A stretch of DNA of 64,000 nucleotides from Gammaproteobacteria bacterium (GCA_965243395.1 CBDEUS010000001.1:1-64000), one strand, 5' to 3'; shown: positions 28,568-47,053, counted from the stretch's first letter. Program-made: numbers and translations. The notes: generated from the sequence alone by a model not told the origin.

Positions 28568-28570
28568 GCA

Positions 28571-28622
28571 TAGGGATATGCGAATATGAGACGCATCATG
28601 GATGATGCGCTCAAATTAGAGT
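28571..28622 (+). repeat. Array end motif L1 (~50 bp), inverted relative to 30455-30505 and 47026-47053
   Basis: TAGGGATATGCGAATATGAGacgCATCATGGATGATGcgcTCAAATTAGAG matches the reverse complement of 30455-30505 (TATGGATATGCAAATATGAGtaaCAACAGGGATGTTGttTCAGATGAGAG). Confidence 0.75.
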
Positions 28623-28808
28623 CAGGAAGAAATAAAAAATGCAGGTTGGAAAAATTGAATTCAAAGTTTCATTATGTCCGCTAACGACCAATAGCGGACA
28701 TTCAACAAATTATCTTTAACGCTGAAAAAAGCCCATATGTCACTTATAAGGCTGTATAAATTTTCAACTCATACTATTCTTACAACAAATTTCTAGTTGG
28801 GGTGACAA

Positions 28809-29840
28809 ATGCACATCAGTAAAGTTGATTTAATGAAGGCTGCTGAAAAAGGTTTGTTGAGAAGCGAGCAAGTTGAACCCTTGTACGAATTTCTTGGCTC
28901 CATCGATAGTAAAAGCCCAAAATTTGATTTCACCCACGTCCTTTATTACCTAGGTGGTTTAATAGCTATTGGTGCCTTAACTCTTTTCATGAATCTAGGT
29001 TGGGAAGAGTTTGGTGGATGGGGAATATTTTTTATATCTTTGCTATATGCAGGTATTGGATTTAAGTTTACAAATTATTTCCGTGACAAAGATCTGCATA
29101 TACCTGCAGGAATATGTGCTGCATTTATAGTTGCTTTGACACCACTTGCTATATATGGATTTCAGCAGGGTATGGGATGGTGGCCTGAAAATACTCCATA
29201 TAGAGAATATCATCGTTACATTAAGTTTTTATGGATCTACATGGAGCTTGGTGCACTTGCCGTCGGGGCAATAATTGTTTGGAAGTATCGTTATCCATTT
29301 TTACTCATGCCTATTGCTGCAACTCTTTGGTATATGTCCATGGATATTGCAGAGATTATTACTAGCGACATCGTACATTTTGAAGAACGGGCTAAAATTA
29401 CAATGGGATTTGGGCTTGCAATGACATTATTTGCATTGCTCGTAGATATTCGGTCCAGAAAATCATTAGATTATGCATTTTGGCTTTATTTATTTGGAGT
29501 AATGGCATTTTGGGGAGGGTTAACCTCTCAACATTCGGATAGTGAGCTCGCTAAGTTTTTTTATTTCTGTATCAACTTGGTTCTAATAGGACTTGGTGTA
29601 ATTTTAGTTAGAAAAGTTTTTGTAGTATTTGGCGCATTGGGATGCGCATTTTATCTTGGACATTTAGCAAATGAAGTGTTTAAAGATAGTTGGTTATTTC
29701 CCATTGCACTGACTGTTATAGGAATTACGGTTATTTATTTGGGTGTGCTATGGCAAAAAAATGAAAAGAGACTTACAGATAATCTTAGGGGTTACTTACC
29801 AGCTGCTATCCAAGAGCTTCTAGAAGGAAAACGCATTTAA
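28809..29840 (+). CDS. Multi-pass membrane protein (DUF2157-like), cassette gene
   Basis: About 10 hydrophobic segments; N-terminal 'AAEKGLLRSEQVEPL...YYLGGLIAIGA' pattern. Confidence 0.75.
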   Translation: MHISKVDLMKAAEKGLLRSEQVEPLYEFLGSIDSKSPKFDFTHVLYYLGGLIAIGALTLFMNLGWEEFGGWGIFFISLLYAGIGFKFTNYFRDKDLHIPAGICAAFIVALTPLAIYGFQQGMGWWPENTPYREYHRYIKFLWIYMELGALAVGAIIVWKYRYPFLLMPIAATLWYMSMDIAEIITSDIVHFEERAKITMGFGLAMTLFALLVDIRSRKSLDYAFWLYLFGVMAFWGGLTSQHSDSELAKFFYFCINLVLIGLGVILVRKVFVVFGALGCAFYLGHLANEVFKDSWLFPIALTVIGITVIYLGVLWQKNEKRLTDNLRGYLPAAIQELLEGKRI

Positions 29841-29918
29841 CAATATGTTTTAAATGACTGCTTACGACCCAAAGCGGACATTTCCACAATCATAGATTTC
29901 ATTCTTTAAAATCTCATC

Positions 29919-30416
29919 ATGGCTGTTTTTATACACCTATTTGACGAACGAAATGCAAGCTCTATTCGCAAGAATGGAATCAAAATTTCAAAAAACTCGA
30001 ACAAAGAAATTAAAGGTGTATTTGCATATCCACAAACAGAAAATTTTGTTGTAAATCATCAGTGGATGCGGGAATTACGACGGCGTGCAGGACAAAATAT
30101 TTTGGCTGCTCGATTTAGGATTTCCGATAATACTGAAGTATTGGTAGGAAAATATAATGAAGAATCAATAGTTACTTCGGCTTCTAATGCAATTGGAATT
30201 GTCCGACAACATATTGATCCTATGGGATTAGAAGTAATAGTTACAAGGCCAATTAAGCCGCGAGAAATTATATCAATTTACAAACCACCTAAAGTAAGTG
30301 GATGGCGATATTATCCAAATGCTAAAGGCGAAAAACCTTGTGGTTGTCCTTATTGTCAGCGCGGTGAGCCATATAGTAAAAAACTGAGAATCAAATATGA
30401 GAAAGATTTTGAATGA
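29919..30416 (+). CDS. Hypothetical protein with C-terminal CxCxxC motif, cassette gene
   Basis: 165-aa ORF containing PCGCPYC; its TGA stop lies inside the 28-bp site at 30413. Confidence 0.8.
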   Translation: MAVFIHLFDERNASSIRKNGIKISKNSNKEIKGVFAYPQTENFVVNHQWMRELRRRAGQNILAARFRISDNTEVLVGKYNEESIVTSASNAIGIVRQHIDPMGLEVIVTRPIKPREIISIYKPPKVSGWRYYPNAKGEKPCGCPYCQRGEPYSKKLRIKYEKDFE

Positions 30417-30454
30417 CCGCTATTGGCCGAAAGCGGGCATTTATAAAGCTCGTA

Positions 30455-30505
30455 GCTCTCATCTGAAACAACATCCCTGTTGTTACTCATATTTGCATAT
30501 CCATA
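30455..30505 (-). repeat. Array end motif R1 (inverted copy of L1)
   Basis: GCTCTCATCTGAAACAACATCCCTGTTGTTACTCATATTTGCATATCCATA. Confidence 0.75.
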
Positions 30506-30609
30506 TGATCACTACCGACCCATAGCCGCCCTTCGTGAACTAAATCACACATTTTTAAATTGTGCAGGGATCTTAGCTACTAAACTGATAGTATCGAGCA
30601 CTTCTATAA

Positions 30610-31149
30610 ATGTATGTTCAATATATGCTTTTCCCACCCGTTCCAGAGAATGAGTCAATTCGCTTGCAAGCACTGCACGAGCTAAATCTTCTTGATACTC
30701 AACCGGATGAAAGAATTGACATCATTACAAAGTTTGCGTGTTATTTTCTAAATGCACCTATTTGTCTAGTTTCCCTCGTCGATGAAAATCGCCAATGGTT
30801 TAAATCTTGTGAAGGATTAAACGTTAAGGAAACTCCACGCTATATGTCATTTTGTGCCCATGCAATTTGTCATACCTCAACTCTTAATTCAGATTCACGA
30901 ATTTTTGAAGTATGTGACACATATATTGATAGTCGATTTATAGATAACCCCTTAGTTACAAAATCTCCTGGGATTCGATATTACATTGGTTATGTGTTGC
31001 AATCTGAATCGAAAATGAATTTAGGTACTTTTTGTATCATCGATACAGTACCTAGAAAATTTTCTGAAAGTGAAAAAGACTTACTAAAGGCACTAGGAGT
31101 TATGGTAGAAAATTTATTAATTAAGAATTCACATTTTCCTCATAATTAA
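30610..31149 (+). CDS. Stand-alone GAF domain protein, cassette gene
   Basis: ENESIRLQALHELNLLDT...SLVDENRQWFKS...SFCAHAI...DSRFIDNPLV...GTFCIIDTVPR is a typical GAF domain; no output domain. Confidence 0.88.
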   Translation: MYVQYMLFPPVPENESIRLQALHELNLLDTQPDERIDIITKFACYFLNAPICLVSLVDENRQWFKSCEGLNVKETPRYMSFCAHAICHTSTLNSDSRIFEVCDTYIDSRFIDNPLVTKSPGIRYYIGYVLQSESKMNLGTFCIIDTVPRKFSESEKDLLKALGVMVENLLIKNSHFPHN

Positions 31150-31179
31150 ACATAGTAGCTCACGTTCGAAAGCAAATAT

Positions 31180-31857
31180 TTATCTTAATAATTTAACTAT
31201 AAAATTTACGATTGGCGAATCACTTTTTATAGCTTCATTATTTGCAACTGCAAAAATTGGCACATTCAACAAGCTTTGTAAATCCTCTTGGTTGTTCATC
31301 GCTTTATCATGAGGTGCATTTCTATTATTTAAGACAATTGCGTTAAGTGTTAAACCTCTTTGCTGAATTGCTTCCACTGTTAATAATATATGGTTAATGC
31401 ATCCTAGCTGATCGTTTGCGACAAGTAATACAGGGAGTCGTAATGTTTCTGCAAGATCTGCATTTAAGCCATTTTCACAAAGCGGCGAATAAAAACCTCC
31501 GGCACCTTCTACTACAAGAAAATTTTCTTCATTTACGTTAGCAAGGCAAGCTTGTTTAGTTTCTTGAACACTAATGGGCTTGTTCACAAGGCGTGCAGCA
31601 CGTTGTGGTGAAATCGCCGGCTCAAAACGAAAAGGACAAATTTCTGTTAGCGGATATTTTTTCTGAATCGCTTCATAGTATTTATTTGCATCATCAGGAT
31701 GTAATGATCCATCTACACACTCACAACCCGATTCAATGGGCTTGCGTGGCACGACATCGAGTTCCAGATCATGCAATCGCGCAACAATTTGCGCGCCAAT
31801 GTAGGTTTTACCCACGTCGGTATCAGTGCCGGTAATAAATAATCCTTTGTTTATCAC
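31180..31857 (-). CDS. bioD: Dethiobiotin synthase
   Basis: FITGTDTDVGKT, KPIESG, VEGAGG, LGCINH motifs. Confidence 0.97.
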   Translation of the reverse strand: MINKGLFITGTDTDVGKTYIGAQIVARLHDLELDVVPRKPIESGCECVDGSLHPDDANKYYEAIQKKYPLTEICPFRFEPAISPQRAARLVNKPISVQETKQACLANVNEENFLVVEGAGGFYSPLCENGLNADLAETLRLPVLLVANDQLGCINHILLTVEAIQQRGLTLNAIVLNNRNAPHDKAMNNQEDLQSLLNVPIFAVANNEAIKSDSPIVNFIVKLLR

Positions 31858-31895
31858 TTTTTTATTTATACAAAAATCAGTTACTTATATTTAAT

Positions 31896-31940
31896 TTGAC
31901 AAGCATACCGCTTGGTATGTATAACATACCGATCGGTATG
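31896..31940 (+). promoter_or_regulatory. Sigma70-like promoter overlapped by two palindromic TetR-type operators
   Basis: TTGACA at 31896 and TATAAC at 31920. Palindromes CATACCGCTTGGTATG (31904-31919) and CATACCGATCGGTATG (31925-31940) lie directly upstream of the TetR gene. Confidence 0.8.
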
Positions 31941-31962
31941 ATACACAAAAAACAGAATAACC

Positions 31963-32577
31963 ATGCCTTCAACAGCTAAGAATACTGAACAAGAACTCGA
32001 TACACGGCAAGTCATTTTAGAAGCGGCCTATGAAGAAATTCACGTGCGTGGATTTCAAGCTGCGAGTTTGTCAAAAATTTTATCTTCTACGAATGTTACT
32101 AAAGGCGCGTTGTATCACTACTTTCCTACCAAATTAGCACTTGGTTATGCGGTAGTCGATGAAATTCTTGCCGATCATATTCAACAACAATGGGTGCAAC
32201 CGCTGCTTCAAGCGGAAGATGCTATTGATGTATTTAAAAATATCATTATGCAATTAGGTGGAGAAATTACAGAAGAAGACATTCAATGTGGTTGCCCTTT
32301 AAATAATCTTGCACAAGAAATGGCACCGATTGATGAAGGTTTTCGTTCGCGTGTCGAAGCTGTTTATCATGCTTGGCGTAAAGGAATTGAAAAAGCACTT
32401 GTTAAAGGTCAAGAAAATGGTTTTGTTAGCAAAGATGTAAATGTTACAAGTGCAGCTATGATGGTTGTGGCCAGTCTAGAAGGTTGTATGGGTCTAGCAA
32501 AAAATGCACAAAGTAAAAAAGTGTTGCTTCAATGCGGGCAAAGTGTAATGGATTATCTTGAAAGTTTAAGACCATAG
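31963..32577 (+). CDS. TetR/AcrR family transcriptional regulator
   Basis: N-terminal HTH TRQVILEAA...VTKGALYHYFPTK; GCPLNNLAQE. Confidence 0.95.
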   Translation: MPSTAKNTEQELDTRQVILEAAYEEIHVRGFQAASLSKILSSTNVTKGALYHYFPTKLALGYAVVDEILADHIQQQWVQPLLQAEDAIDVFKNIIMQLGGEITEEDIQCGCPLNNLAQEMAPIDEGFRSRVEAVYHAWRKGIEKALVKGQENGFVSKDVNVTSAAMMVVASLEGCMGLAKNAQSKKVLLQCGQSVMDYLESLRP

Positions 32578-32585
32578 GAAAGATT

Positions 32586-34925
32586 ATGCTAAGTAAATAT
32601 TCAGATTTTATTCTTCGCTGGCGTTATCTAGTAGTGCTCGTAAGTTTAGTATGTGCATTTGCATTAGCTTCGGGTGGTAAGAATTTAGTTTTCACGAACG
32701 ATTATCGGTATTTTTTTAGTGAAGATAACCCTCAGTTACTAGAATTCGAAACATTACAAGATACTTATACAAAAAATGATAATGTTTTTATTATGCTAGA
32801 GCCTAAGGATGGTAATGTATTTAATAAACCGTTTTTAGCAGCATTAAAAGAACTTACAGAAAGTTCTTGGCAGGTCCCTCATTCTATTCGTGTAGATTCA
32901 ATTACTAATTTTCAACATACCTACGCAGAGGGAGATGATCTAATCGTAATAGATTTAGTTGACGATGTAGAAAATTTGTCAGCAAGTGAGATTAATTACA
33001 TTCAAAACGTTGCTATAAGTGAACCCTTATTAGTACATCGATTAGTGTCTGCAACCTCTCAAGCCGCTGCAATAAATATTACCATTGAACTGCCAGGTAA
33101 AAATGAGATAACAGAAGGACCTGAAGTCGTTAACTTTACCAGAGATATGGTAAAAGCCTTTGAGCAAGCGCATCCAGAAATTGATGTGTATACCACGGGC
33201 ATAGTAATAATGAATAATGCCTTTCCGGAAGCCAGCATAAACGATATGAAAAATCTCATACCGTTTGCCTTTGCTGCAGTTATTATTGGGCTATTCTTAT
33301 TTCTACGTAGTATCAGCGCAACGGTATCTACACTTATTGTAATCATTCTCTCCATTATGATGGGTATGGGTGCTGCTGGTTGGTTAGGTTTTAAGTTAAC
33401 CCCACCCTCTGCATCTGCTCCAACCATGATTCTTACTCTGGCGGTGGCTGATTGTGTGCACTTTTTAACAACATTTCTAAAATCCATGCGTGCTGGCCTA
33501 GATAAATTTGCAGCGATTAAAGAGTCATTAAGAATTAATTTTAATCCTATATTTTTAACATCATTAACCACAGTAATTGGATTTTTAAGTTTAAATTTTA
33601 GTGATGTTCCTCCATTTCGTGATCTTGGCAATATCACGGCAATGGGTGTGACATTTGCTTTTGTGTTGTCTGTATTTTTCTTACCTGCTTTGGCTGCAAT
33701 ATTGCCGTTTAAAGTTAAAGTCGGTGTGGACAGAAAAACTAAATTAATGCAAGCGCTCGCAAATTATGTAATCGCAAAGCGCAAAGTTTTGCTTTGGGGG
33801 ATGGGTGCAGTAATTCTCGCATTTATTGCGATCATTCCGCGTAATGAAATTAATGATCGTTTTGTAGAATACTTCGATGAAACAATTGAGTTTCGTCTGC
33901 ATACAGACTATGTAACTGAAAAAATTACTGGTCTTTATAGTATTCAATATTCTTTAGAGGCAAACGATTCGGGTGGTATAAGTGAACCCGCTTTCTTGCA
34001 GAAGATGGACGACTTTACAGCATGGTTGCGTGATCAGCCGGAGGTAATGCATGTAAATACGGTTTCGGACACTTTCAAACGTTTAAATAAAAACATGCAT
34101 GCAGATGATGAGCAGTTTTATAAACTGCCAGATAATCGTGAGTTAGCTGCACAATACTTATTGTTGTATGAATTGTCCTTGCCTTATGGTCTGGATCTGA
34201 ATGATCAAATTAATATTGATAAATCCTCTACTCGAATATCCACTACTTTGCAAACATTAAGTACTGAGAAGATGTTAGATTTTGAGGCAAGATCAAGAAA
34301 TTGGATTAATGAAAACGCACCAAACATAGGAATGGTTGCCTCGGCGCCAGCAGTAATCTTTTCACACCTTGCGGTACGCAATATCGATAGCATGATTAAA
34401 GGCACATTGGTTGCATTAGCAGTTATTTCGCTAATTTTAATTTTTGCATTAAGGTCTTTTAAATTAGGTTTATTAAGTTTAATTCCAAATCTCACACCGG
34501 TTGGTGTTGCATTTGGTATTTGGGCTATTTTTGATAGTGAAGTTGGGCTTGCGTTATCCATTGTTGCCGGTATGACATTAGGCATTGTCGTAGATGATAC
34601 CGTGCACTTTATGAGTAAGTATTTAAGAGCTAAAAGAGAAAAGGATAGCTCAGCTGTTGAAGCTGTCCGTTATGCCTTTGAAAATGTGGGTACTGCATTG
34701 TTAGTAACCACAATCGTATTAGCAGCGGGATTTTTAGTTTTATCTTTGTCAGCTTTTGAGTTGAATTCTGCAATGGGTTTGTTAACCGCTATTACCATTG
34801 TCATTGCATTAATTATTGATTTCTTATTTTTACCACCATTATTGATAGCGTTAGAAGGTGGCGGTCATGAAAAGGAGAACCGTGATGAACAAGAGTTGGA
34901 ATCTGATCTCGCAACTGCTAGTTAG
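32586..34925 (+). CDS. MMPL/RND family transporter
   Basis: Two 6-TM halves with large periplasmic loops; AVADCVH and GIVVDDTVHF motifs. Confidence 0.92.
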   Translation: MLSKYSDFILRWRYLVVLVSLVCAFALASGGKNLVFTNDYRYFFSEDNPQLLEFETLQDTYTKNDNVFIMLEPKDGNVFNKPFLAALKELTESSWQVPHSIRVDSITNFQHTYAEGDDLIVIDLVDDVENLSASEINYIQNVAISEPLLVHRLVSATSQAAAINITIELPGKNEITEGPEVVNFTRDMVKAFEQAHPEIDVYTTGIVIMNNAFPEASINDMKNLIPFAFAAVIIGLFLFLRSISATVSTLIVIILSIMMGMGAAGWLGFKLTPPSASAPTMILTLAVADCVHFLTTFLKSMRAGLDKFAAIKESLRINFNPIFLTSLTTVIGFLSLNFSDVPPFRDLGNITAMGVTFAFVLSVFFLPALAAILPFKVKVGVDRKTKLMQALANYVIAKRKVLLWGMGAVILAFIAIIPRNEINDRFVEYFDETIEFRLHTDYVTEKITGLYSIQYSLEANDSGGISEPAFLQKMDDFTAWLRDQPEVMHVNTVSDTFKRLNKNMHADDEQFYKLPDNRELAAQYLLLYELSLPYGLDLNDQINIDKSSTRISTTLQTLSTEKMLDFEARSRNWINENAPNIGMVASAPAVIFSHLAVRNIDSMIKGTLVALAVISLILIFALRSFKLGLLSLIPNLTPVGVAFGIWAIFDSEVGLALSIVAGMTLGIVVDDTVHFMSKYLRAKREKDSSAVEAVRYAFENVGTALLVTTIVLAAGFLVLSLSAFELNSAMGLLTAITIVIALIIDFLFLPPLLIALEGGGHEKENRDEQELESDLATAS

Positions 34926-35685
34926 CCTTATTGTATTTAGTGCAAGCACATTTGCTTGGGCTGAAACACCTGAGGAGAAAGGGTTAGCGATTGCCATTGC
35001 AGCCGATGAACGAGATTTTGGTTTTGAAACAATCACCGCAGATATGGTGATGATTTTGCGCAATCGTAAAGGGCAGGAAAGCACACGTTATATACGTACT
35101 CGCACTTTAGAAGTAGAGGGGGATGGCGATAAAACCCTATCTATTTTTGATCGCCCTGCGGATGTAAAACATACTGCAGTGCTAACCTACAGTCATGGGT
35201 TAGAGCCGGATGATCAATGGTTATATCTGCCTGCACTGAAACGAGTAAAACGTATTAATTCAAGGAATAAATCTGGTCCGTTTGTGGGTAGTGAATTTGC
35301 CTTTGAAGATTTAGGCTCACAAGAGGTAGAAAAGTATTCTTATAAATATTTACGAGATGAAGCTTGTGGTGAATGGGATTGTTACGTAATCGAACGATAT
35401 CCTGAATATGAATACTCCGGCTACACACGCCAGGTGGGATGGATTGACAAGGCCGAGTACCGTCCTGTAAAAATTGAATTTTATGATCGTAAAGATGTGT
35501 TACTTAAAACACTTACTTATAGCGGTTATCAAGAGTACATCGACTATTACTGGCGTCCAGATGAAATGTTTATGGAAAATCATCAAACTGGTAAGACAAC
35601 TACATTAAAATGGTCTAACTACAAATTCAAAACAGAAGTAGCTGAGCGTGATTTCAATCCTAATGCATTACCTCGTTTGCGTTAA
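34885..35685 (+). CDS. Outer-membrane lipoprotein-sorting (LolA-like) protein
   Basis: Signal peptide; DDQWLYLPALKRVKRI and FVGSEFAFEDL motifs. ATG at 34885 follows AAGGAG. Confidence 0.85.
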   Translation: MNKSWNLISQLLVSLIVFSASTFAWAETPEEKGLAIAIAADERDFGFETITADMVMILRNRKGQESTRYIRTRTLEVEGDGDKTLSIFDRPADVKHTAVLTYSHGLEPDDQWLYLPALKRVKRINSRNKSGPFVGSEFAFEDLGSQEVEKYSYKYLRDEACGEWDCYVIERYPEYEYSGYTRQVGWIDKAEYRPVKIEFYDRKDVLLKTLTYSGYQEYIDYYWRPDEMFMENHQTGKTTTLKWSNYKFKTEVAERDFNPNALPRLR

Positions 35686-35706
35686 AAACTAACGTAAAAA
35701 TTAAAA

Positions 35707-36930
35707 ATGTTTCTGGCATTAAAAACTGTCCTACATGTGTTTCTGTGGGGCATTGTTTTTTTATCATTATATATACAAGTTGTTTCAGCAGAAGAATCGA
35801 GTGGTTACTGGTCTGGTTATATTTCTGGACAGGCTCGAGGATTTTGGCAAAGTTCGCAATTCAGCGATCAACGTGACGGGGATATTTCTTTCGCAACCGA
35901 GCCAGAGTATTACAAAGATTGGAATAATGGCTTACGCGCAATAACTTTTAAACCTTTTGTACGTATCGATTCCACTGATCCAGAACGTACCCACGCCGAT
36001 ATAAGAGAAGCACATTATTTACATGTAGTGGGTGATTGGGAATGGCGTGTCGGTATCGCCAAAGTGTTTTGGGGAGTAACCGAATCTCAACATCTGGTTG
36101 ATATCATTAATCAAACAGATTTAGTTGAAAATATAGATACCGAAGACAAGCTTGGGCAACCAATGATTGAGACTACTTGGTTGCAAGATTGGGGCGCATT
36201 ACAGTTTTATATTCTACCGGGTTTTCGCGAACGAACATTTCCGGGTCGGCATGGGCGTTTGCGCACAGGCTTAGTGGTGGATACTGATAAAGAAGAATAT
36301 GAATCTGGCGCAGAAGAATATCATGTCGATTGGGCAGTGCGTTTGAAAACTCAATTTGGGCCTATCGATTTAGGACTATCACACTTTAATGGCACATCGC
36401 GTACTCCAGAATTACGCCCTACTGTAAATTCAAGTGGTGATTTAGAACTGATCCCATTTTACGGTTTAATTGATCAAACAGGCTTAGACTTGCAAGCAAT
36501 AATCGGCAATTGGACATGGAAGTTAGAATCTATTTTGCAGACTAAAAAAGGCCGTGACTTCACAGCAGCCGTAGGTGGATTTGAATATACGTTTTATGGT
36601 GTTTCTGAAAGTGGTGCGGATTTAGGTGTGTTGTCTGAATATCATTATGATGATCGCAAGCAAGATGCTGCTACTCCGTTTCAGGATGACCTATTTTTAG
36701 GTGCGCGTTATGTATTTAATGACGCGCAAGATACAGAAATTTTAGCGGGTGGCTTATATGATTTCGATTTTAGCAGTAAAAGTTTTCGTGTAGAGCTGCA
36801 GCGTAGATTTAGTGATAGTTGGAAACTTGAAAGCGAATTGCAATTGTTCAGCAATGTTGCAAATGAAGATCCGCAACGTGATTTTCATCGCGATGATTAT
36901 TTTCAAGTAGATCTTGCATATTATTTTTAA
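35707..36930 (+). CDS. Outer-membrane beta-barrel protein associated with the MMPL/LolA-like cluster
   Basis: Signal peptide, amphipathic strands, terminal AYYF. Confidence 0.8.
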   Translation: MFLALKTVLHVFLWGIVFLSLYIQVVSAEESSGYWSGYISGQARGFWQSSQFSDQRDGDISFATEPEYYKDWNNGLRAITFKPFVRIDSTDPERTHADIREAHYLHVVGDWEWRVGIAKVFWGVTESQHLVDIINQTDLVENIDTEDKLGQPMIETTWLQDWGALQFYILPGFRERTFPGRHGRLRTGLVVDTDKEEYESGAEEYHVDWAVRLKTQFGPIDLGLSHFNGTSRTPELRPTVNSSGDLELIPFYGLIDQTGLDLQAIIGNWTWKLESILQTKKGRDFTAAVGGFEYTFYGVSESGADLGVLSEYHYDDRKQDAATPFQDDLFLGARYVFNDAQDTEILAGGLYDFDFSSKSFRVELQRRFSDSWKLESELQLFSNVANEDPQRDFHRDDYFQVDLAYYF

Positions 36931-37013
36931 TAAGTATGGCAAGTAAGGAACAGCTTGAGAAAAATAAGTTAAATGCTAACGCATTAAGAATCAGCAAATA
37001 ACAACACAATGTT

Positions 37014-37898
37014 CTAAATTTTTTCGCCGGTTAGTATTTCACAGGCTTCTAAATATTTCTTACTAGTATTGTCAATAATTTCTTGAGGGAGTTTTGGTCC
37101 GGGAGCTTTTTTATTCCAGTCTAAGGTTTCCAAATAGTCACGTACGTATTGCTTGTCAAAACTTCTCGGACTTTGCCCTACCTTGTAAGAATCTAAAGGC
37201 CAAAAACGAGATGAGTCAGGAGTGAGTGCCTCATCAATTAGAACAATTTCCTGATTTTCATCTAATCCAAATTCAAATTTGGTATCGGCAATTATAATTC
37301 CACGCTCTAATGCAAATTGAGCCGCTTCAGAATATATTTGTAAGCTTAAATCTCTAACTTTTTCGGCAATATCTTTTCCTACCAAATTAATAATTTCATC
37401 AAAACTTACGTTAATATCATGATCTCCCACAGCAGCTTTTGTGGAAGGAGTAAATATTGCAGTATTCAGTTGTTGGGCTTGTTGTAAATTTTCAGGTAGC
37501 TTTACACCACAAATAGCTCCAGTATTTTGATATTCCTTCCAACCAGAACCAATCACATAACCTCGTACAATAGCTTCAAAAGGTAGTGCTTTTAATTTTC
37601 TTGCAATGACGCTTCTGTCTCTAAGTACGTTTAATTCTTGCTCGTCTTTAATTATATCTTCGAGAGGTATGTCGCTTAGATGATTCTTAACTTGTTTAGA
37701 GAAATGATCGAACCAGAAATTGGAAACCTTAGTAAGCACGATGCCTTTTTTTGGAATCGGGTCGGGTAAAATCACATCGAAAGCAGATAAACGATCACTC
37801 GTAACGATAAGCCAGTGCTCACTATCGACTTGGTAAATATCGCGTACTTTGCCTTGATAGACCTTTTTCAGGCTTTTTAGGTTAGATTCGAATAACAT
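37014..37898 (-). CDS. purC: SAICAR synthetase
   Basis: GKVRDIY, SDRLSAFD, DTKFEFG, TPDSSRFW motifs. Confidence 0.98.
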   Translation of the reverse strand: MLFESNLKSLKKVYQGKVRDIYQVDSEHWLIVTSDRLSAFDVILPDPIPKKGIVLTKVSNFWFDHFSKQVKNHLSDIPLEDIIKDEQELNVLRDRSVIARKLKALPFEAIVRGYVIGSGWKEYQNTGAICGVKLPENLQQAQQLNTAIFTPSTKAAVGDHDINVSFDEIINLVGKDIAEKVRDLSLQIYSEAAQFALERGIIIADTKFEFGLDENQEIVLIDEALTPDSSRFWPLDSYKVGQSPRSFDKQYVRDYLETLDWNKKAPGPKLPQEIIDNTSKKYLEACEILTGEKI

Positions 37899-38503: not shown

Positions 38504-38514
38504 TATTTGATTCT

Positions 38515-39651: not shown

Positions 39652-39662
39652 TTTTTTTCGCA

Positions 39663-40658
39663 ATGAAAAAATTTTCTGCTTTTCGAATCCATTCAAACAG
39701 TGAAGGTACACAAGCAGGAATTGAGCAACTCAGTATTGATGATCTTTGCGAAGGTGATGTTGTTATCAAGGTAAAGTATTCAAGCGTAAATTATAAAGAT
39801 GCACTTGCGGGTTCTGGTAGAGCGCAAATTCTTCGACGTTCACCATTAGTGGGAGGTATAGATCTAGCTGGTGAAGTTGTTGAATCTACAAGTGGTGAAT
39901 TTGTTCCGGGTGATCAGGTCTTAGTAAATGGTAGCGGTTTAAGTGAAACACACGATGGGGGCTATGCAGAATTTGCTCGCGTTCCCACAGATTGGGTTGT
40001 GCCTTTACCAAAGGGATTAAGTTTAAGCCAGACTATGATTATTGGTACGGCGGGTTTTACAGCCGCATTATGTGTGCACTTGCTAGAACAGAATAATCAA
40101 AAAGTAGAAGATGGCCCGATTGTTGTTACAGGAGCAAGTGGTGGCGTTGGTAGTTTTGCGATCAATATATTACATAAGCTAGGCTTTGAAACCATCGCAG
40201 TGTCAGGCAAAAAAAATTCGTTTGACTACTTATATGAATTAGGGGCTACTAAAGTAGTAGGTCGTGAAAAAATCAAAATAGGAGATGGTGTATTAGAAAA
40301 AACACGTTGGGCTGGCGCTATTGATAACGTCGGTGGAGAAACATTAAGTGCATTGGTGCGTGCGACCAAGCCATGGGGAAATGTGGTCAGTGTTGGCATT
40401 GCGGGTGGAGTAAAATTTGAGCTTTCAACCATGCCATTTATTATTCGAGGCGTGAACTTATTAGGTGTAAGTTCATCTAATTGTCCACAAACACTTAGAA
40501 AAGTAATTTGGAATCGTCTTGGCGATGATTTGCACCCTGATCAAATAGCTAAGATACATTCTGAAACAGTTAAGTTAGAAGATTTACCGCAGATATTCGA
40601 AAAATTACTTAATAATGAAATTCAAGGCAGAACGCTTGTGGAGGTAAGTAATGATTAG
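39663..40658 (+). CDS. YhdH/AcuI family MDR oxidoreductase (acryloyl-CoA reductase-like)
   Basis: YSSVNYKDALA, GTAGFTAAL, VTGASGGVGS, PFIIRGVNLLGV motifs. Confidence 0.9.
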   Translation: MKKFSAFRIHSNSEGTQAGIEQLSIDDLCEGDVVIKVKYSSVNYKDALAGSGRAQILRRSPLVGGIDLAGEVVESTSGEFVPGDQVLVNGSGLSETHDGGYAEFARVPTDWVVPLPKGLSLSQTMIIGTAGFTAALCVHLLEQNNQKVEDGPIVVTGASGGVGSFAINILHKLGFETIAVSGKKNSFDYLYELGATKVVGREKIKIGDGVLEKTRWAGAIDNVGGETLSALVRATKPWGNVVSVGIAGGVKFELSTMPFIIRGVNLLGVSSSNCPQTLRKVIWNRLGDDLHPDQIAKIHSETVKLEDLPQIFEKLLNNEIQGRTLVEVSND

Positions 40659-41205
40659 AAGGTTTTTTATGAAAAATACTTATACAGTTTTAATTTTTAC
40701 TTTTGCGCTTCTCGCGAGTGCGATGGTTTATGCGGCAAAAGTGAACCCTCCTGCGCAAATGCCTGAGTTTACCCAAATGGATCAAGCTGCATGGATCAAT
40801 TCAAAACCTTTGGCAGTAAGTGATCTGCGTGGCAAGGTAGTTTTAATTGACGTATGGACTTATGGTTGTTGGAATTGCTACAACTCATTTCCCTGGTTAA
40901 GAAGTGTTGAAGAAAAATTTGCAGATCAAGATTTCACAGTGATCGGTATTCATACACCAGAGTTTGAGCATGAGAAAAAACGTGAAAATATTGTTAAAAA
41001 AGTAGAAGAATTTATGCTGCATCACCCTGTGATGATTGACAACGATTTTGCCTACTGGCGTGCCTTGCGAAATAAATATTGGCCTGCATACTACATAGTT
41101 GATAAGCAAGGCAACATTCGTAAAGGGTTTATTGGCGAAACTCACCAAGGAGATCGCAGAGCAAAAAAGATTGAAAACTTAATTGCTAAATTGCTGAAAG
41201 AATAA
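40651..41205 (+). CDS. Exported redoxin (DipZ/TlpA-like thioredoxin); start may be 40669
   Basis: WTYGCWNC, GIHTPEF, YWPAYY motifs; signal peptide. Confidence 0.9.
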   Translation: MIRRFFMKNTYTVLIFTFALLASAMVYAAKVNPPAQMPEFTQMDQAAWINSKPLAVSDLRGKVVLIDVWTYGCWNCYNSFPWLRSVEEKFADQDFTVIGIHTPEFEHEKKRENIVKKVEEFMLHHPVMIDNDFAYWRALRNKYWPAYYIVDKQGNIRKGFIGETHQGDRRAKKIENLIAKLLKE

Positions 41206-41440
41206 GATTTCCATCAGGCGTGATGCATCCGATTCAAGGTAAGTGAGCTAATATCAATAACAGCTTAGGAATTTCAATTCAGAGCTTCAAAATAACTGCT
41301 TATAGCCCAAAGCAGATATTAAATAATTACTAAACGTAATCGCCGACTAATAAAATAGTCTAATCTTCGTTCTACATACGTGCATTTAATGTAATGAATT
41401 GGAGTTTAGTTTACTAGACTCAATGTTTACAATTAGACAC

Positions 41441-42718
41441 ATGTCAAATAAACATCATGTTGTTGTTATTGGAGCTGGGTTTGGCGGAATACAAACTGTC
41501 CATCATCTCAAGCACAAAAATGTCCGCATCACACTTATTGATCAGCATAACTATCATCTTTTCCAGCCCTTACTATACCAAGTTGCAACCGCATTATTGG
41601 CACCATCAGAGATCGCCTGGCCAATACGTAATTTGGTACGTAAGAGAAAGGATATTACTACTTTATTAGCAGTAGTAGCGGATGTAGATAAAGATAACAA
41701 AAAAGTTATTCTAGAAAACGGCGAATCAATTACATACGACACTCTTGTAATAGCAACAGGAGCACGTCACGCTTATTTTGGACATGACGAATGGTCAAAA
41801 TATGCCCCGGGCTTAAAAGTTTTAGAGGAAGCTACATCTATAAGACACAAAATTTTGATCGCATTTGAACGAGCTGAATTTGAAACAGATAAAATGAAAC
41901 AGGATGCGCTTTTAACTTTTGTAATAGTTGGTGGTGGCCCAACAGGTGTAGAACTTGCTGGCACAATTGCCGAGCTTGCGCACCATACGCTATCTAACGA
42001 ATTTCGCCATTTTGATTCTAAAACCACTCGTGTAGTGCTTGTAGAAGCTTCTTCCCGGATTTTGTCTTCATTTTCGGAAAGTCTGTCGAACTATGCAAAG
42101 AAAGCTCTAGAGAATCTCGGGGTAGAAGTTCAACTTGGGCAGCCTGTATCAACCTGTGATGAGGATGGCGTGACTATAGGTTCTGAAAGGCTAAACTCTA
42201 AAACAATTCTTTGGGCAGCAGGGGTTCAAGCATCACCCGCGGCAAATTGGCTTAATGTGCAAGCTGATCATGCAAATCGTGTCATCGTAGAGCCAGATTT
42301 AACGATCCCGAACAATTCAGAAATATTTGTTATTGGAGACACAGCATCAATTAAGGATAAAAATGGCCATCAAATTCCTGGCATTGCACCTGCCGCTAAA
42401 CAACAAGGGCACTATGTAGCCAAACAAATCAAAGCACGTCTTCAAGGTAAAAAATTAACAAACCCATTTCAATATAAAAGCTTTGGGCAGATGGCAACGA
42501 TTGGTAAACGTGCAGCAGTTTTTGAAATCGGTAGACTGAAATTTCATGGCTGGCCTGCTTGGTGGTTATGGGGAATAACACATATTTACTTTTTAATCGG
42601 GGTGCGTAATAGGATGTCTGTTGCATTAAGCTGGTTATGGATTTACTTCAAAGGTGATAGAGGTGCGCGATTGATTACAAACTTTGATACAACAACAACT
42701 GAGAAATTTGAAGAATAG
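41441..42718 (+). CDS. ndh: Type II NADH dehydrogenase-like FAD oxidoreductase, cassette gene
   Basis: VVIGAGFGG, HLFQPLLYQVAT, VGGGPTGVELAG, VIGD, APAAKQQG motifs; ATG at 41441 preferred over TTG at 41399. Confidence 0.9.
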   Translation: MSNKHHVVVIGAGFGGIQTVHHLKHKNVRITLIDQHNYHLFQPLLYQVATALLAPSEIAWPIRNLVRKRKDITTLLAVVADVDKDNKKVILENGESITYDTLVIATGARHAYFGHDEWSKYAPGLKVLEEATSIRHKILIAFERAEFETDKMKQDALLTFVIVGGGPTGVELAGTIAELAHHTLSNEFRHFDSKTTRVVLVEASSRILSSFSESLSNYAKKALENLGVEVQLGQPVSTCDEDGVTIGSERLNSKTILWAAGVQASPAANWLNVQADHANRVIVEPDLTIPNNSEIFVIGDTASIKDKNGHQIPGIAPAAKQQGHYVAKQIKARLQGKKLTNPFQYKSFGQMATIGKRAAVFEIGRLKFHGWPAWWLWGITHIYFLIGVRNRMSVALSWLWIYFKGDRGARLITNFDTTTTEKFEE

Positions 42719-42799
42719 CAGTAACGTGTTGTTGGAACTATTTAATACGAAATGCTTTAAGATGTCTGCTCACGACCCAAAGCGGACATTTTGGTCATC

Positions 42800-43150
42800 A
42801 TGAAATTAATCGTAAATTGCATACTGCATATTAGTTTTATGATTGTATTTGGTTGTTCACAAGAACCTATAATAAATAATTCAAAATTTGCTGAAAGCTT
42901 AATAGAAGAACATTTTTCTATAGGTACGCACGTAAATGAGATAAATAAATTTTGTGACAAAAATGGATATGCAATATATGAAGCTACTAAATGTGAAAAT
43001 AATCAAGAAAGTTGTTCCCATGGAGCACTTGTAACTGTGTCGACACCAAATAATAGCTGGTGGTATGGAAATGGGCTTATTCAAATATATTTAACATTTG
43101 ATGATAATAAAAAATTAAATCATATTAAGCACGAAATATATTATGACTAA
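42800..43150 (+). CDS. Hypothetical lipoprotein, cassette gene
   Basis: MKLIV...IVFGC lipobox-like signal; ATG 10 bp after a 28-bp site; TAA lies within the next site. Confidence 0.7.
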   Translation: MKLIVNCILHISFMIVFGCSQEPIINNSKFAESLIEEHFSIGTHVNEINKFCDKNGYAIYEATKCENNQESCSHGALVTVSTPNNSWWYGNGLIQIYLTFDDNKKLNHIKHEIYYD

Positions 43151-43173
43151 CGACCCAAATCGGACTTAGCTTT

Positions 43174-43470
43174 ATGACGAATCAGCTATCAAACGAAGAA
43201 GAAAAGGAGCTTTCATCCCTTTATCTTCAAGCAATTATTATTGCTGACAAATTTGCTAATGTAGATTCAAATGAGTCGGAAGCGATTATTGGAATGAATA
43301 ATATTCTAACCAGTGTAAAACCTATAGTGGAAGCGTCTTATCAGAAGAAAAATTTAAAAGGCATGAGGATGATTATAAGTGACTTCAAAGAGATGTTTTC
43401 TGGGTGCTCAGATGAAGATCGGCAAGCAACAAACAAAATATTTAAACAAAATAATTTAGCTGAGTGGTAA
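43174..43470 (+). CDS. Hypothetical protein, cassette gene
   Basis: 98-aa ORF filling the interval between sites 43143 and 43480. Confidence 0.7.
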   Translation: MTNQLSNEEEKELSSLYLQAIIIADKFANVDSNESEAIIGMNNILTSVKPIVEASYQKKNLKGMRMIISDFKEMFSGCSDEDRQATNKIFKQNNLAEW

Positions 43471-43526
43471 TTCGCAAGTATGACCGCTAATGACAGAAAG
43501 TAGAATTTAGTAAAAAAGGGATAATT

Positions 43527-43955
43527 ATGAAACGTTTAATATTCGCTGTATTATTATTTAATGTTGTTTCAATTACTTTAGCTGCACCTCCTAAACCCGC
43601 TGAAACTAAATATCTAAAAACAGAAGTTGGTGGATTCGCAATAGAGAAAGGAAAAGCACTTTATTCTCTACAATATAAAATTAAAAAGCCCTTTGATAAA
43701 AAAATTTCGGCACAGATTCAGTACGAAAATCCTGATCCCAATGGAGGAAGTTTGATTGATGAATTTATAATTAATCCAGGGCAAGTATCAATTTCTGTCG
43801 AATCAGTAGTGTTAAGTTGTATAAAAAACAATAAAAAATATAAAGTTGTACTAAAACTATTCGACGACGGTAAGCAAATTACCAAACATAAAGATAAGGT
43901 ACAGTTTGCTTTACCAGATGAGATAATTCAGCAGTTAAAAATTACATTATGCTAA
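43527..43955 (+). CDS. Secreted hypothetical protein, cassette gene
   Basis: MKRLIFAVLLFNVVSITLA signal peptide; RBS-like AAGGG upstream. Confidence 0.8.
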   Translation: MKRLIFAVLLFNVVSITLAAPPKPAETKYLKTEVGGFAIEKGKALYSLQYKIKKPFDKKISAQIQYENPDPNGGSLIDEFIINPGQVSISVESVVLSCIKNNKKYKVVLKLFDDGKQITKHKDKVQFALPDEIIQQLKITLC

Positions 43956-44019
43956 ATGCGTAAATATCAGCTTTCGAACAAAAGCGGACATTTAAAATTA
44001 ATGTTCTAATATCATCAAA

Positions 44020-44508
44020 ATGCGTTATTTTCTCTTAGTTCTGACTATATTTTCCAACCTATGTCAAAGTAATCAAGAAGAAGTCTACGTTCAATATAAC
44101 GAATATTTTAACCATGTTAATAGTTCAACAAAAACTGAACCCATTAGTATTTATTTTACAAAAAAAGAAATTTTAAAAAGCAAACAAGCCATCAAAACAA
44201 TGAGAGAGCATGGTTTTAGCGATGACTACATAAAGGATAGTATGTGGAAATATCTCGCAAGAGGCGCACGATTCAAAGAAATATCAGATCATGCAGAGGA
44301 TAATTATTTAGATGATAGTAAATGTTTGGTAATACGAGGTTTATACCATAATAATAAATGGGTAAGTGCAATTCACAAATACGATTACGAAGATGGTTCA
44401 TTTAAGATTGATAGTATTTTTTTAGATTATGATGATGGTGGTGATGAACTATTTATTCACGCTAATCTAGATTTATGTGATTTATTACATAGTGAAACTG
44501 CTACATAA
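44020..44508 (+). CDS. Secreted hypothetical protein, cassette gene
   Basis: Signal-like N-terminus; TAA immediately adjacent to the site at 44509. Confidence 0.75.
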   Translation: MRYFLLVLTIFSNLCQSNQEEVYVQYNEYFNHVNSSTKTEPISIYFTKKEILKSKQAIKTMREHGFSDDYIKDSMWKYLARGARFKEISDHAEDNYLDDSKCLVIRGLYHNNKWVSAIHKYDYEDGSFKIDSIFLDYDDGGDELFIHANLDLCDLLHSETAT

Positions 44509-44546
44509 ATGACCGCTATTGGCCGAAAGCGGATATAAAAATTTGT

Positions 44547-45014
44547 ATGAAAAGACAATCACCATTAGTTTGTTGGATACTTTCAGTAATTACCAGCGGC
44601 ATTTATTCATTATATTGGCTTTATAATCGCAGTGATGTAATTAATGAAATGTCGGGTAATACTAATTTTCAAGGAAAGAAAATGGTTAAGAAAATATTGT
44701 TTTCATTTGTAATTGTGTCTGTATTAATGTGTTTAGCGCTATATTTTGATCCTAATCAAGTCAGTAATAAAGAAGCAGATGATGATTTATTTAGCATATT
44801 TTTATGGCTAACATTTTTCGCCGCTATGTTTTATACATGGTCGATTATTCAAGCATTTTACAAAGCTGGATATGCTATCCAAACATTAGAAAAGAAACAG
44901 GACATCGAAAACCAATGCTCACCTTATTTATCATGGGTATTATTATTTTTTTTGTACTTTAATATTCCTTATTTGCAATCTCATTTAAATTGCTTGGGTG
45001 GTCCACAGGAATGA
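44547..45014 (+). CDS. DUF4234-like membrane protein, cassette gene
   Basis: KRQSPLVCWILSVITSGIYSLYWLY...YLQSHLN pattern; TGA lies inside site 45011. Confidence 0.78.
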   Translation: MKRQSPLVCWILSVITSGIYSLYWLYNRSDVINEMSGNTNFQGKKMVKKILFSFVIVSVLMCLALYFDPNQVSNKEADDDLFSIFLWLTFFAAMFYTWSIIQAFYKAGYAIQTLEKKQDIENQCSPYLSWVLLFFLYFNIPYLQSHLNCLGGPQE

Positions 45015-45071
45015 CCGCTATTGGCCGGAAGCAGACATATTTTACTTATAATGGTTTAAATTAGTTTTGAA

Positions 45072-45536
45072 ATGAGTACATATATACATCATCTAACTGC
45101 GAATGATATGACAATCATGAGAGCTATGCTCATAACATTTGGTGAAGTATTCAATGACATGGATACCTATACTGAAAAACAGCCTAGTTCAAACTACTTG
45201 GAAAAATTACTCAATAAGGATTCATTTATCGCATTGGCAGCTTTAAAGAATAATAATGTCGTTGGCGCGATGGTAGCTTATGAGCTTGTAAAATTTGAGC
45301 AAGAACGCAGTGAATTCTACATTTATGATCTAGCAGTAGATAAATCTCATCGGCGTGAGGGTATTGCAACTGGCTTGATAGAAGAGCTAAAAAATATTGC
45401 TGCAAAACGAGGAGCTTACGTAATTTTTGTTCAGGCTGACAAAGGTATTGAGGATGAACCAGCAATTGCACTCTATAATAAGCTTGGAAAAACTTGTGAG
45501 GATGTATTCCACTTTGATATACAAGTTAATGATTAG
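45072..45536 (+). CDS. aac(3)-I: AAC(3)-I family aminoglycoside N-acetyltransferase (GNAT), cassette gene
   Basis: FGEVFND..TY...QP...YL..LL....[26 protein letters not shown]...[32 protein letters not shown]...EDV.HFDI: the motif series of AAC(3)-I (aacC1-type) enzymes. Confidence 0.9.
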
Positions 45537-45596
45537 AATGTCCGGTATCGATCCAAAGCGGACTAATTATAGAAAACTGACAATCCTATAACATTT

Positions 45597-46097
45597 ATGA
45601 GAATAATATTTTTTTTAATACTAATCATTTTAATATGTTCGTGGTTTTATTATGGGCATTGGATCTTTAACAATAAAAAACTATCTTGGAAAATTATTTG
45701 GGTATTTGTAACAATTCTACCGTTTATTAGTTTTTATTATTTAACTAACCCAAGTGTTAACTATTACAAAAATCAATTTACACTTATATCAGGGTTTGAG
45801 TTTCCTTCAAATGGTATATTTATAGACTATTCTTCATCGTTTCCAGATTTACAAGGCGATTATAGCGTTTGTGGTTTGTTCAAAGCTCCAACTGATTTCA
45901 TAAAAATACTAAACTCTACAATTCCTACAATACAAAATGGTCAATTCAAGCCACGAATGTTTTGCAAATTGGATGAGAAATCAAAATATTACTACACAAA
46001 TGTTTTAGATCTTGAAAATGAGGAACTAGGAGTTACAGGAATACTTGGTATCAGCACCGAAACAAATGTTGTTCATTTTCAATTTTTTAGAAATTAA
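45597..46097 (+). CDS. Hypothetical membrane protein, cassette gene
   Basis: Two N-terminal TM segments; flanked by sites 45538 and 46101. Confidence 0.7.
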   Translation: MRIIFFLILIILICSWFYYGHWIFNNKKLSWKIIWVFVTILPFISFYYLTNPSVNYYKNQFTLISGFEFPSNGIFIDYSSSFPDLQGDYSVCGLFKAPTDFIKILNSTIPTIQNGQFKPRMFCKLDEKSKYYYTNVLDLENEELGVTGILGISTETNVVHFQFFRN

Positions 46098-46166
46098 ATA
46101 AAATCCGCTATTGGTTGAAAAATATGCAAAAATGACAATTAGAACTTATATAAAAATATTTTAATC

Positions 46167-46607
46167 ATGAAAGATATAAAAAAAGTTTTTCGTAATCTTG
46201 AAAGAAAATTGAACAAATCAAGTTGGTTTGATAATGGTTGGGAGATTTACAACCGTGGTGTTTATCTGCAACTCTACAAGGATAGCTGGCACAATCATAA
46301 TCAGGGTGGAATTCATTTTGAAACTTTTATTGAAGCGAGAGAAGTTAAACAAAAGGCATTCCCAATCTGTATGCATGCGGAGGAAGATTGCCCCTCACAA
46401 CAGACTTTCATTCAAGAGTTTATGGCATTGGAAGGTGATCGAATAAAGGGTTGGAAAGGTTATCAAATTGGCGAAGGCTACAGCATCTGCAAAAGAACAC
46501 TTCCTCTTAATTTTAAGAATCTGGAGCAACGGTTATTAGAAGAGTTCAGCAGACTTCGACAACTGGAAAAAAGCGTGGAAAAGGCACTGAGTCTAGTTCA
46601 AATTTAG
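46167..46607 (+). CDS. Hypothetical protein, cassette gene
   Basis: 146-aa ORF containing LQLYKDSWHN...GIHFETFI. Confidence 0.78.
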   Translation: MKDIKKVFRNLERKLNKSSWFDNGWEIYNRGVYLQLYKDSWHNHNQGGIHFETFIEAREVKQKAFPICMHAEEDCPSQQTFIQEFMALEGDRIKGWKGYQIGEGYSICKRTLPLNFKNLEQRLLEEFSRLRQLEKSVEKALSLVQI

Positions 46608-46676
46608 GCTGGCTTACACGGTGCAAACATTAATGGCTGAAAGCAGTCATCTAATTAATGTAATAAGGTATTAAAA

Positions 46677-46970
46677 GTGATTAGAAAACTATTCCTGTCT
46701 ATTATATTTATACCTGTCATTTCATCGGCGTGGATGGGGGGTGGAGGCGGTAAAAGTTATGAGGATGGCATGTTTTGGGGTGCTGATCTGGATCGAAACG
46801 AACGTTTAGATCGAGAGGAAGCTAAGGCTGTTTATAATTTAGCAGAAGATGAAATTTTTACACGCTATGATAAAAATGGGAACGGAACAATAAATCTACC
46901 TGAATTTATGGAATTTTTTCAACATTCTCCATGGACGAATAAAATTAATCATCCTAAAGCTAAAGAGTAA
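46677..46970 (+). CDS. Secreted EF-hand calcium-binding protein, cassette gene
   Basis: Signal peptide; EF-hand loops DLDRNERLDREE and DKNGNGTINLPE. Confidence 0.8.
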   Translation: MIRKLFLSIIFIPVISSAWMGGGGGKSYEDGMFWGADLDRNERLDREEAKAVYNLAEDEIFTRYDKNGNGTINLPEFMEFFQHSPWTNKINHPKAKE

Positions 46971-47025
46971 CTTAAAATGATGTGATTTGAGTCAGTGCAG
47001 CACTTGAATTATAAAAGATTATTAT

Positions 47026-47053
47026 TGTTGTTACTCATATTCACATATCCTTA
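47026..47053 (-). repeat. Array end motif R2
   Basis: TGTTGTTACTCATATTCACATATCCTTA matches 30478-30505 TGTTGTTACTCATATTTGCATATCCATA at 25 of 28 positions. Confidence 0.8.

Follow-up and report, generated by a model that had tools for sequence, protein, structure and literature searches.

A paired two-hairpin repeat at gene cassette arrays of uncultured Gammaproteobacteria and its possible role as a REPIN-like platform for cassette capture

The repeat and the arrays that it borders

The window analysed here is a stretch of 64,000 nt from Gammaproteobacteria bacterium (GCA_965243395.1 CBDEUS010000001.1:1-64000) which holds two arrays of small genes and 28-bp hairpin sites, and the subject of this report is a repeat of about 65 nt (13 copies were aligned over that length) found at the ends of both. 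Array 1 lies between amtB and a bioD-like gene, and array 2 between a redoxin gene and an spmAB-like gene; both pairs of core genes are convergent, in agreement with a preliminary description of this DNA. A covariance model of the repeat (R1) was run over the window with filters off, and its matches are given below together with the flanking genes and the spacers which separate the repeat from the first 28-bp site of each array.

27245-28567, plus strand: amtB, left flank of array 1 (Pfam Ammonium_transp, E 8e-122)
28560-28627, plus strand: complete copy of the repeat (head, hairpin 1, linker GAATATGAG, hairpin 2, tail), left end of array 1, R1 80.7 bits
28628-28673, plus strand: spacer from the repeat to the first site of array 1, carrying a TTGAATTCAAAG box (alignment)
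30450-30516, minus strand: complete copy facing inward, inner right end of array 1, R1 70.8 bits
31180-31857, minus strand: bioD-like gene (Pfam AAA_26), right flank of array 1
40651-41205, plus strand: redoxin/AhpC-TSA gene (Pfam), left flank of array 2
41190-41244, plus strand: truncated copy, 'A-type', left end of array 2, R1 24.2 bits, E 6e-4 over the window
41245-41291, plus strand: spacer from the truncated copy to the first site of array 2, carrying a TTCAATTCAGAG box, counterpart of 28628-28673
46997-47064, minus strand: copy facing inward, right end of array 2, abutting the spmAB stop, R1 50.9 bits
47055-48284, minus strand: spmAB-like gene with two Gate domains (Pfam), right flank of array 2

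The preliminary description had placed the 20-mer TANGGATATGYRAATATGAG at three positions, all of which were found exactly by pattern search of the window, at 28571-28590(+), 30486-30505(-) and 47034-47053(-). When up to three mismatches were allowed there were still three matches, against an expectation of 0.13, and three were reached in 0 of 100 shuffles. R1 returned four matches with E <1e-3, one per end of both arrays and each facing inward, the fifth-ranked match reaching only 11.7 bits (E 1.3). As the truncated copy at 41190-41244 is among them, all four array ends bear an inward-facing copy; the degenerate plus-strand copy proposed earlier at 41250-41286 was in the wrong place, that stretch being spacer. 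The similarity of about 50 bp previously noted between the regions at 28571 and 30455-30505 extends to about 65 nt, with 75% identity over 52 aligned columns.

The four copies differ in their state of preservation. That at 28560-28627 folds into two hairpins (-14.1 kcal/mol, z -4.8) and the amtB stop TAA falls within its head, 6 nt before GGATATG and 3 nt before the first 20-mer (28571). The copy at 30450-30516 has a different stem in hairpin 2 (AACAAC/GTTGTT) with pairing kept, and its head overlaps a degenerate 28-bp site at 30505-30532; the GAF gene (30610-31149) lies outside this copy, which is internal to array 1 just as had been described. The truncated copy retains hairpin 2 and the tail, hairpin 1 being absent, and its linker aligns to GAATAAGAT, which contains the redoxin stop; in alignment it is similar to two copies from other genomes (L005 minus strand and L059 plus strand, see below). 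In the copy at 46997-47064, decay has affected hairpin 2 and the left arm of hairpin 1 and spared the 20-mer, and there is no stable fold (z +1.2); a 412-codon ORF (open reading frame) ends 4 nt before GGATATG, and the spmAB-like gene ends 1 nt from the 20-mer. The two spacers are homologous in alignment and have a TTSAATTCARAG box in common; the same box occurs in locus L038 and, more weakly, in L060 and L011.

Relatives in other genomes

Relatives were sought by scanning the genome_contigs collection with the 17-mer GGATATGYRAATATGAG, and the distribution obtained is a lower bound. At least 117 stretches were matched; among the matches listed, 109 were chance occurrences, mostly within coding sequence, and eight were loci with the extended motif and 28-bp sites (L005, L011, L038, L059, L060, L077, L106 and L110). 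These loci, at least eight in number, come from four other metagenome-assembled genomes (MAGs) of uncultured Gammaproteobacteria, one of them labelled Mycobacterium despite a GC content of 0.41, and add at least 11 copies of the repeat by R1 (15 with the window). Two further inward-facing pairs were found among the matches listed.

L005, 9987-10435: inward pair, 449 bp, enclosing two 28-bp sites and no ORF of at least 60 codons
L059, 8750-10031: inward pair, 1.28 kb, flanked by moaD and a degP-like gene and enclosing one site and two small ORFs

Between MAGs, copies share 84-96% identity (90% for the window copy at 28574 and that of L038), in a lineage whose Pgk proteins are about 81-85% identical to that of the window. 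The best matches to the window's Pgk in other genomes, at 85-93% identity, are all labelled as MAGs of Gammaproteobacteria bacterium. Noncoding DNA so well conserved between genomes with a Pgk divergence of 15-19% points to either selection or a recent spread. The motif with its first site had no match in the plasmid collection by blastn, and in the phage collection there were three matches at chance level (E 0.04-0.5), all within coding genes. Rfam at gathering scores over the whole window gave nothing at the motif or the sites, and at E up to 1 over 28500-30600 only chance-level SNORD25 and rli32. Literature searches by sequence string and keywords found no description of the motif or of such arrays.

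Structure and folding of the repeat

The repeat consists, in order, of a head, (T)AGTGAGCAT, which points outward from the array, a first stem-loop (GCAYA-(K)GG(A)-TRTGC), the linker GAATATGAG, a second stem-loop and the tail TCWGATTAAAG. The second stem-loop has the apex CATGGATG (CAT-GG-ATG) and a lower stem which varies between copies yet stays paired, the variants including GCATCAT/ATGATGC, GCAACAT/ATGTTGC and GCGTCAT/ATGACGC. One helix has 5 pairs and the other 6, and in some copies they are longer. In the alignment, 87% of 143 cells of the two-helix structure are paired and 13 cells are altered on both sides; the covariation score was matched in 0 of 500 shuffles, and control structures with slid partners pair at 10-47%. 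RNAalifold, run unguided, gives the identical two helices, and six of the eight copies folded as DNA adopt the two hairpins. The CATGGATG apex with a stem extension of at least 3 bp is confined to motif regions, the figure for unrelated loci (1.16 Mb) being 2 of 85 occurrences.

Extra hairpins with the CATGGATG apex and unrelated stems adjoin the main copies at L077 10057-10260(-) and L059 9925-9950(-), and L077 has a second, tandem copy of the repeat; the hairpin module thus seems able to multiply.

Three copies (L005 minus, L059 plus and window 41190) carry an 'A-type' sequence, GGATGYGCGAATATGATGTCCATCA, and each is paired with a copy of the other type, in three of the four pairs. The L005 minus and L059 plus copies are 84% identical to each other, as against 75% and 69% to their own partners. 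This is a hint of what differentiated left and right ends would look like.

The 28-bp sites and the cassettes

The 28-bp sites are themselves hairpins, with 9-bp arms and a conserved loop of 10 nt (WW-CGRCCM-AW); pairing is 87%, and six of the nine pairs show changes on both sides. In the alignment of window and locus sites one stem pair is T-G in 8 of 20, a wobble which suggests that one particular strand of the site folds; one position is mostly unpaired in 11 of the 20. There are two loop types, CGACCC/A and CGGCCA, the latter scoring best on the opposite strand. With a model of the site (R2) and a threshold of E <0.05, all 10 sites called in the window lie within the two arrays.

28674-28701, plus strand: first site of array 1, R2 46.7 bits
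29854-29881, plus strand: site after the cassette ORF 28809-29840, R2 47.4 bits
30413-30440, minus strand: site of the CGGCCA loop type, R2 46.3 bits on the minus strand
30505-30532, plus strand: degenerate site, six mismatches to the 28-nt pattern, below the R2 reporting level
31149-31182, minus strand: very degenerate site-like palindrome (an inverted-repeat pair) between the GAF gene and the bioD stop, R2 11.8 bits, E 0.9
41292, 42762, 43140, 43964, 44509, 45011 and 45538 (span 41292-45565), plus strand: sites of array 2, R2 E <0.05 each
43480: weaker match in array 2, pattern search only

The site at 30413-30440 overlaps the stop of ORF 29919-30416, and about 10 nt separate it from the inner repeat's tail. 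The arrays are made up of small, mostly family-less ORFs on the plus strand (no Pfam family in 8 of 13), with a GC content of 0.32-0.36 as against 0.39-0.41 in the flanking core. The cassette at 45072-45536(+), flanked by sites at 45011-45038 and 45538-45565, encodes an aminoglycoside N-acetyltransferase of the AAC(3)-I family (NCBIfam NF033083, 221 bits, cutoff 200). The cassette ORF 29919-30416(+) belongs to no Pfam or NCBIfam family; the idea that it is a hidden recombinase was rejected, the protein atlas giving clusters of hypothetical proteins and ADP-ribosyltransferase look-alikes (DarT/PARP 0.91, Arr 0.89), a weak lead. At L038 813-913 two 28-bp sites stand back to back in opposite orientation between divergent genes, 45 bp apart and with no feature in the gap, and could be an empty cassette slot or a pair like that of a dimer of repetitive extragenic palindromes (REPs).

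The repeat is tied to the sites

In sequence the head of the repeat is a variant right arm of the 28-bp site, and in some copies it is that arm itself. Three of the 13 copies (L005, L077 and L106) have a site's left arm and loop directly outside the head, with 0, 2 and 3 substitutions in 19 positions, and three or fewer substitutions were reached in 0 of 20,000 random non-array windows of 28 nt. In the degenerate site at 30505-30532, which overlaps the 30502(-) copy, the left arm has the sequence of the motif head in reverse complement. The preliminary description had called for a check of whether the repeat keeps company with arrays of 28-bp sites, and it does: in the window and the matches listed, 15/15 copies lie within 1.5 kb of a site and in 8/15 an R2 site starts within 50 nt inward of the tail, the distance to the first site being about 44-45 nt in both window arrays. 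Among the matches listed, all eight loci with the extended motif have site matches, as against 1 of the 109 others.

A census was made of 120 junctions between ORFs of at least 100 codons in the window and six loci, about 150 kb. The repeat was at 10 of these, every one at an array, and neither the motif nor a 28-bp site was at any of the seven array-free core convergent junctions. The spread of a REP-like element after convergent genes, which the earlier work had named as the observation that would count against a link to the arrays, was therefore not seen, and within about 150 kb the motif is not a general after-gene repeat. As the loci were picked by the motif, they are unbiased only in their remaining sequence.

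Gene ends, and a search for signals and enzymes

In 8/15 copies (window and matches listed) the repeat abuts or overlaps the stop of a co-oriented core ORF, the genes concerned being amtB, the spmAB-like gene and the redoxin gene in the window, moaD and degP in L059, an ABC ATPase in L005 and in L060, and TauE in L038. The stop falls between 9 nt before GGATATG and the linker: in 6 of the 13 aligned copies GGATATG comes 0-9 nt after the end of an ORF of 91-460 codons, and two more (L060 and window 41190) have a stop in the linker. In L060 (10002-10031) the 564-codon ABC ATPase ORF runs through the head and hairpin 1 and ends at the linker TGA, so that its last residues are encoded by the repeat.

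No terminator-like site was found at any copy, neither hairpin being followed by a T-run. There was no inward promoter match of 9/12 or better within the motif, and promoter-like sites in the region were no more frequent than in shuffles; one outward-facing 9/12 match lies inside the 30502(-) copy. A copy flanking a transposase or integrase and a target duplication, both of which had been set down earlier as things to look for, were not found, as is set out in the Discussion.

Other features of the window and of its relatives

An ORF of 5018 codons at 56-15112(+) contains, within positions 1-9201, a 387-bp unit in 24 perfectly identical tandem copies, and this identity suggests either a very recent expansion or an assembly artefact. 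Genes for DUF7933/DUF11 surface proteins come after this ORF. A cyclic di-GMP-I riboswitch at 17747-17834(+) (71.6 bits, gathering 35) lies directly upstream of the DUF11/DUF7927 ORF 17837-19603. Eukaryote-like genes occur in relatives of the lineage, at L005 3944-4447(-) and L060 3004-5796(+), for a Ras-family small GTPase and two caspase-domain proteins.

Discussion

The pairing of the repeat, and its tie to the sites, suggest to us a REPIN-like cassette platform, non-autonomous and acted on in trans, of which the two copies would form the inverted ends, a reading to which we give slightly less than even odds (about 0.45). In the available text of PMC3337134 a REPIN is two inverted REPs with a spacer, mobilised in trans, and in that of PMC3733652 long 'double palindromic' terminal inverted repeats flank some RAYT/TIRYT genes. 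The reading builds on the anatomy, covariation, placement, recurrence and co-location with 28-bp sites described above, and would add to them mobility, recognition of single strands and an enzyme. The platform would land right at gene 3' ends, in many cases between convergent genes, making no target duplication, with the head supplying a TGA or TAG stop, and would bring one or more 28-bp hairpin sites between its ends. Cassettes would then gather between the ends, occasionally at the head, via recombination at the 28-bp sites, and an enzyme encoded elsewhere in the genome, recognising folded single strands, would catalyse both landing and cassette gain; an HUH Y1 transposase of the RAYT/TIRYT type or a tyrosine recombinase would be candidates.

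The available descriptions of REPs, REPINs and bacterial interspersed mosaic elements bear much resemblance to what is seen here: short stem-loops, with stems of 6-13 bp in REPs, and compensatory stem variants, several copies per genome and mosaics with other repeats, and, for REPs and REPINs, inverted pairs with the conserved terminus outward, a position next to stops at convergent ORFs, sometimes giving the stop, and no target duplication. The orientation of REP dimers is matched in the four pairs, heads outward, with a spacing of 449 bp-5.9 kb enclosing sites and genes. On the other hand, GTAG is found at the head in only 1 of 13 aligned copies (window 30502 minus) and CGTC in 0/13; the unit is a compound one of 65 nt, with two stem-loops and conserved single-stranded parts; and within the roughly 150 kb of the census every copy stood at a cassette array, none following any other core gene. 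REPs are spread through their genomes in high copy number, with a cognate RAYT gene that the repeat flanks. No RAYT was seen among the ORFs scanned here, although one per genome is easily missed. The stop-abutting ends, the outward head and the head which supplies a stop look transposon-like but are also normal for REP dimers, as far as the available text of PMC3733652 describes them, and it is because the tag is absent, the unit compound, the head a site arm and the occurrence limited to arrays that we read the repeat as a REPIN-like cassette platform and not as a plain REP.

The preliminary description had suggested either the terminal inverted repeats of a non-autonomous element or leader/attI-like platform sequences. 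What has held of this is the inverted inward pairs, two in the window and two elsewhere, their tie to arrays, and a head which is a variant site arm; what has not is a target duplication and an enzyme. Three arrays have the motif at one visible end, and the GAF cassette lies outside.

Several observations weigh against the platform. The GAF cassette lies beyond the pair of array 1, and three loci (L038, L060 and L077) show the motif at just one visible end. The pairs stand 0.45-5.9 kb apart, as against 20-100 bp in most REP dimers in the available text of PMC3733652. No direct repeat of 4 nt or more flanks the ends at offsets of 0-15 in the four pairs, the longest being 3 nt, once. Neither the 51 window ORFs nor 60 ORFs of six related loci have a recombinase, transposase or integrase domain, nor is there a Y1 transposase among them, and so the acting enzyme is one that we infer. 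No cassette is common to the window arrays and the related loci (tblastn, E 1e-3), so that cassette mobility itself is presumed. The stem mismatches of the motif have no strand bias (5 G-T as against 8 A-C), so it is the pairing alone which suggests single-strand use, and the pairing of A-type with other copies, with a chance of about 0.07 under random assignment by our count, is a hint at most.

Among the alternatives, we consider it unlikely that the repeat is an attI-like entry site, a fixed platform and not a mobile end, in which the head would be the crossover arm for a recombinase acting in trans and the hairpins and tail accessory binding sites. Such a site would account for the likeness of the head to a site arm and for the full sites at the head in three to four copies, for the GAF cassette and the L005 site at 9971-9998 lying outside a motif, as expected for insertion at the head, and for the 44-45 nt to the first site in both window arrays, with a box common to both spacers. 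An integron, however, has one attI, at the promoter-proximal end of the array and beside intI, and here the motif is at both ends facing inward, there is no integrase among the ORFs scanned and no inward promoter match within the motif, and most cassettes lie inside the motif pair and not at the head.

We hold it to be equally unlikely that the repeat is a REP-like element serving the 3' ends of core genes, in transcript-end protection or insulation, which has no part in recombination and whose gaps are also those in which arrays grow. The adjacency to stops of co-oriented ORFs of at least 91 codons in 8/15 copies speaks for this, the upstream gene would have the motif on its sense strand, and the available text of PMC3733652 documents convergent REPs less than 20 bp from both ORF ends, with stop-supplying termini, outward tags, and compensatory and G-T stem variation. 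Yet 7/15 copies have no core ORF directly upstream, G-T mismatches are not in excess over A-C, neither a GTAG or CGTC tag nor a T-run after either hairpin is seen, and the repeat is absent from 7/7 array-free core convergent junctions whereas 15/15 copies are at arrays and the head is an arm of the 28-bp site. That the repeat is a functionless noncoding cassette or decayed remnant hitch-hiking between sites might be supposed from copies with sites on both sides, like mini-cassettes of 90-130 bp (window 30413-30532, L005 9971-10090 and L077 9932-10060), and from the two truncated or decayed window copies, but is very improbable in view of the 84-96% identity between genomes, the stems kept by compensatory changes, and an outward head and terminal position constant in 4/4 pairs.

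The REPIN-like platform may also be set beside other known systems. Integrons and clusters of attC sites lacking integrases (CALINs) are similar in their small, mostly co-oriented orphan genes of low GC, each ending at a folded imperfect palindrome, and in a special border site; and the AAC(3)-I gene is a classic kind of integron cassette, found here in one array. Unlike in integrons, there is no integrase nearby, the sites are of 28 bp with a conserved loop, the border element is inverted at both ends (both window arrays, L005 and L059) and there are several arrays per genome, between core genes. Miniature inverted-repeat transposable elements (MITEs) and composite transposons likewise have short noncoding inverted repeats bracketing a region, here that of the cassettes, with an ORF-less version of 449 bp in L005, and integrons flanked by MITEs ('integron mobilization units') exist. 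As with the terminal inverted repeats of DDE transposons and MITEs, there are four inward pairs, whose partners are 69-75% identical in the three scored (the window 41190 pair being left out); as against MITEs, there is no target duplication and no autonomous relative was seen, and both hairpins and a recombination-site arm are present in the ends. An IS5-type terminal repeat starting from GGATATG with a 4-bp duplication was rejected, conservation running 9-11 nt further out and the flanking 4-mers being different. IS200/IS605 elements have hairpins too, but here the ends are inverted copies of one motif and not distinct left and right ends on the same strand. The 28-bp sites of Xer/dif modules are made up of a XerC arm, a 6-bp centre and a conserved XerD arm; those described here behave as hairpins of 9-bp arms and a conserved 10-nt loop. 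In the mosaic intergenic regions of Neisseria, short palindromes of fixed loop length punctuate variable regions between conserved genes. The arrays resemble these mosaics in their short fixed-loop palindromes between conserved genes and their mixed repeat families; there is no relation in sequence, and here whole genes lie between the sites. The available text of PMC3733652 describes CGTC-1 elements interleaved with other repeat families in those regions.

A bolder form of the proposal, which we regard as rather doubtful, is that this is an undescribed capture platform without an integrase, in which a REPIN-like mobile seed would insert at gene stop codons, bringing along 28-nt hairpin sites that act as single strands, and would grow 'mini-integrons' at many chromosomal junctions in a lineage of uncultured Gammaproteobacteria. 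An enzyme specific for single strands and encoded elsewhere would drive this, and the AAC(3)-I-type gene would be one cassette already captured. If the platform reading is right, cassette capture and the building of arrays would not be confined to integrons with their IntI/attC chemistry, and accessory genes in many parts of a chromosome would owe both their landing pad and their recombination sites to a family of REP-like hairpins. This would link two old puzzles, the purpose of REP-type repeats and the origin of gene cassettes. The models of the ends (R1) and of the sites (R2) would then allow metagenomes to be searched for arrays which are invisible to integron finders, and, as the AAC(3)-I-family cassette shows, resistance-type genes can be carried in such arrays by environmental bacteria.

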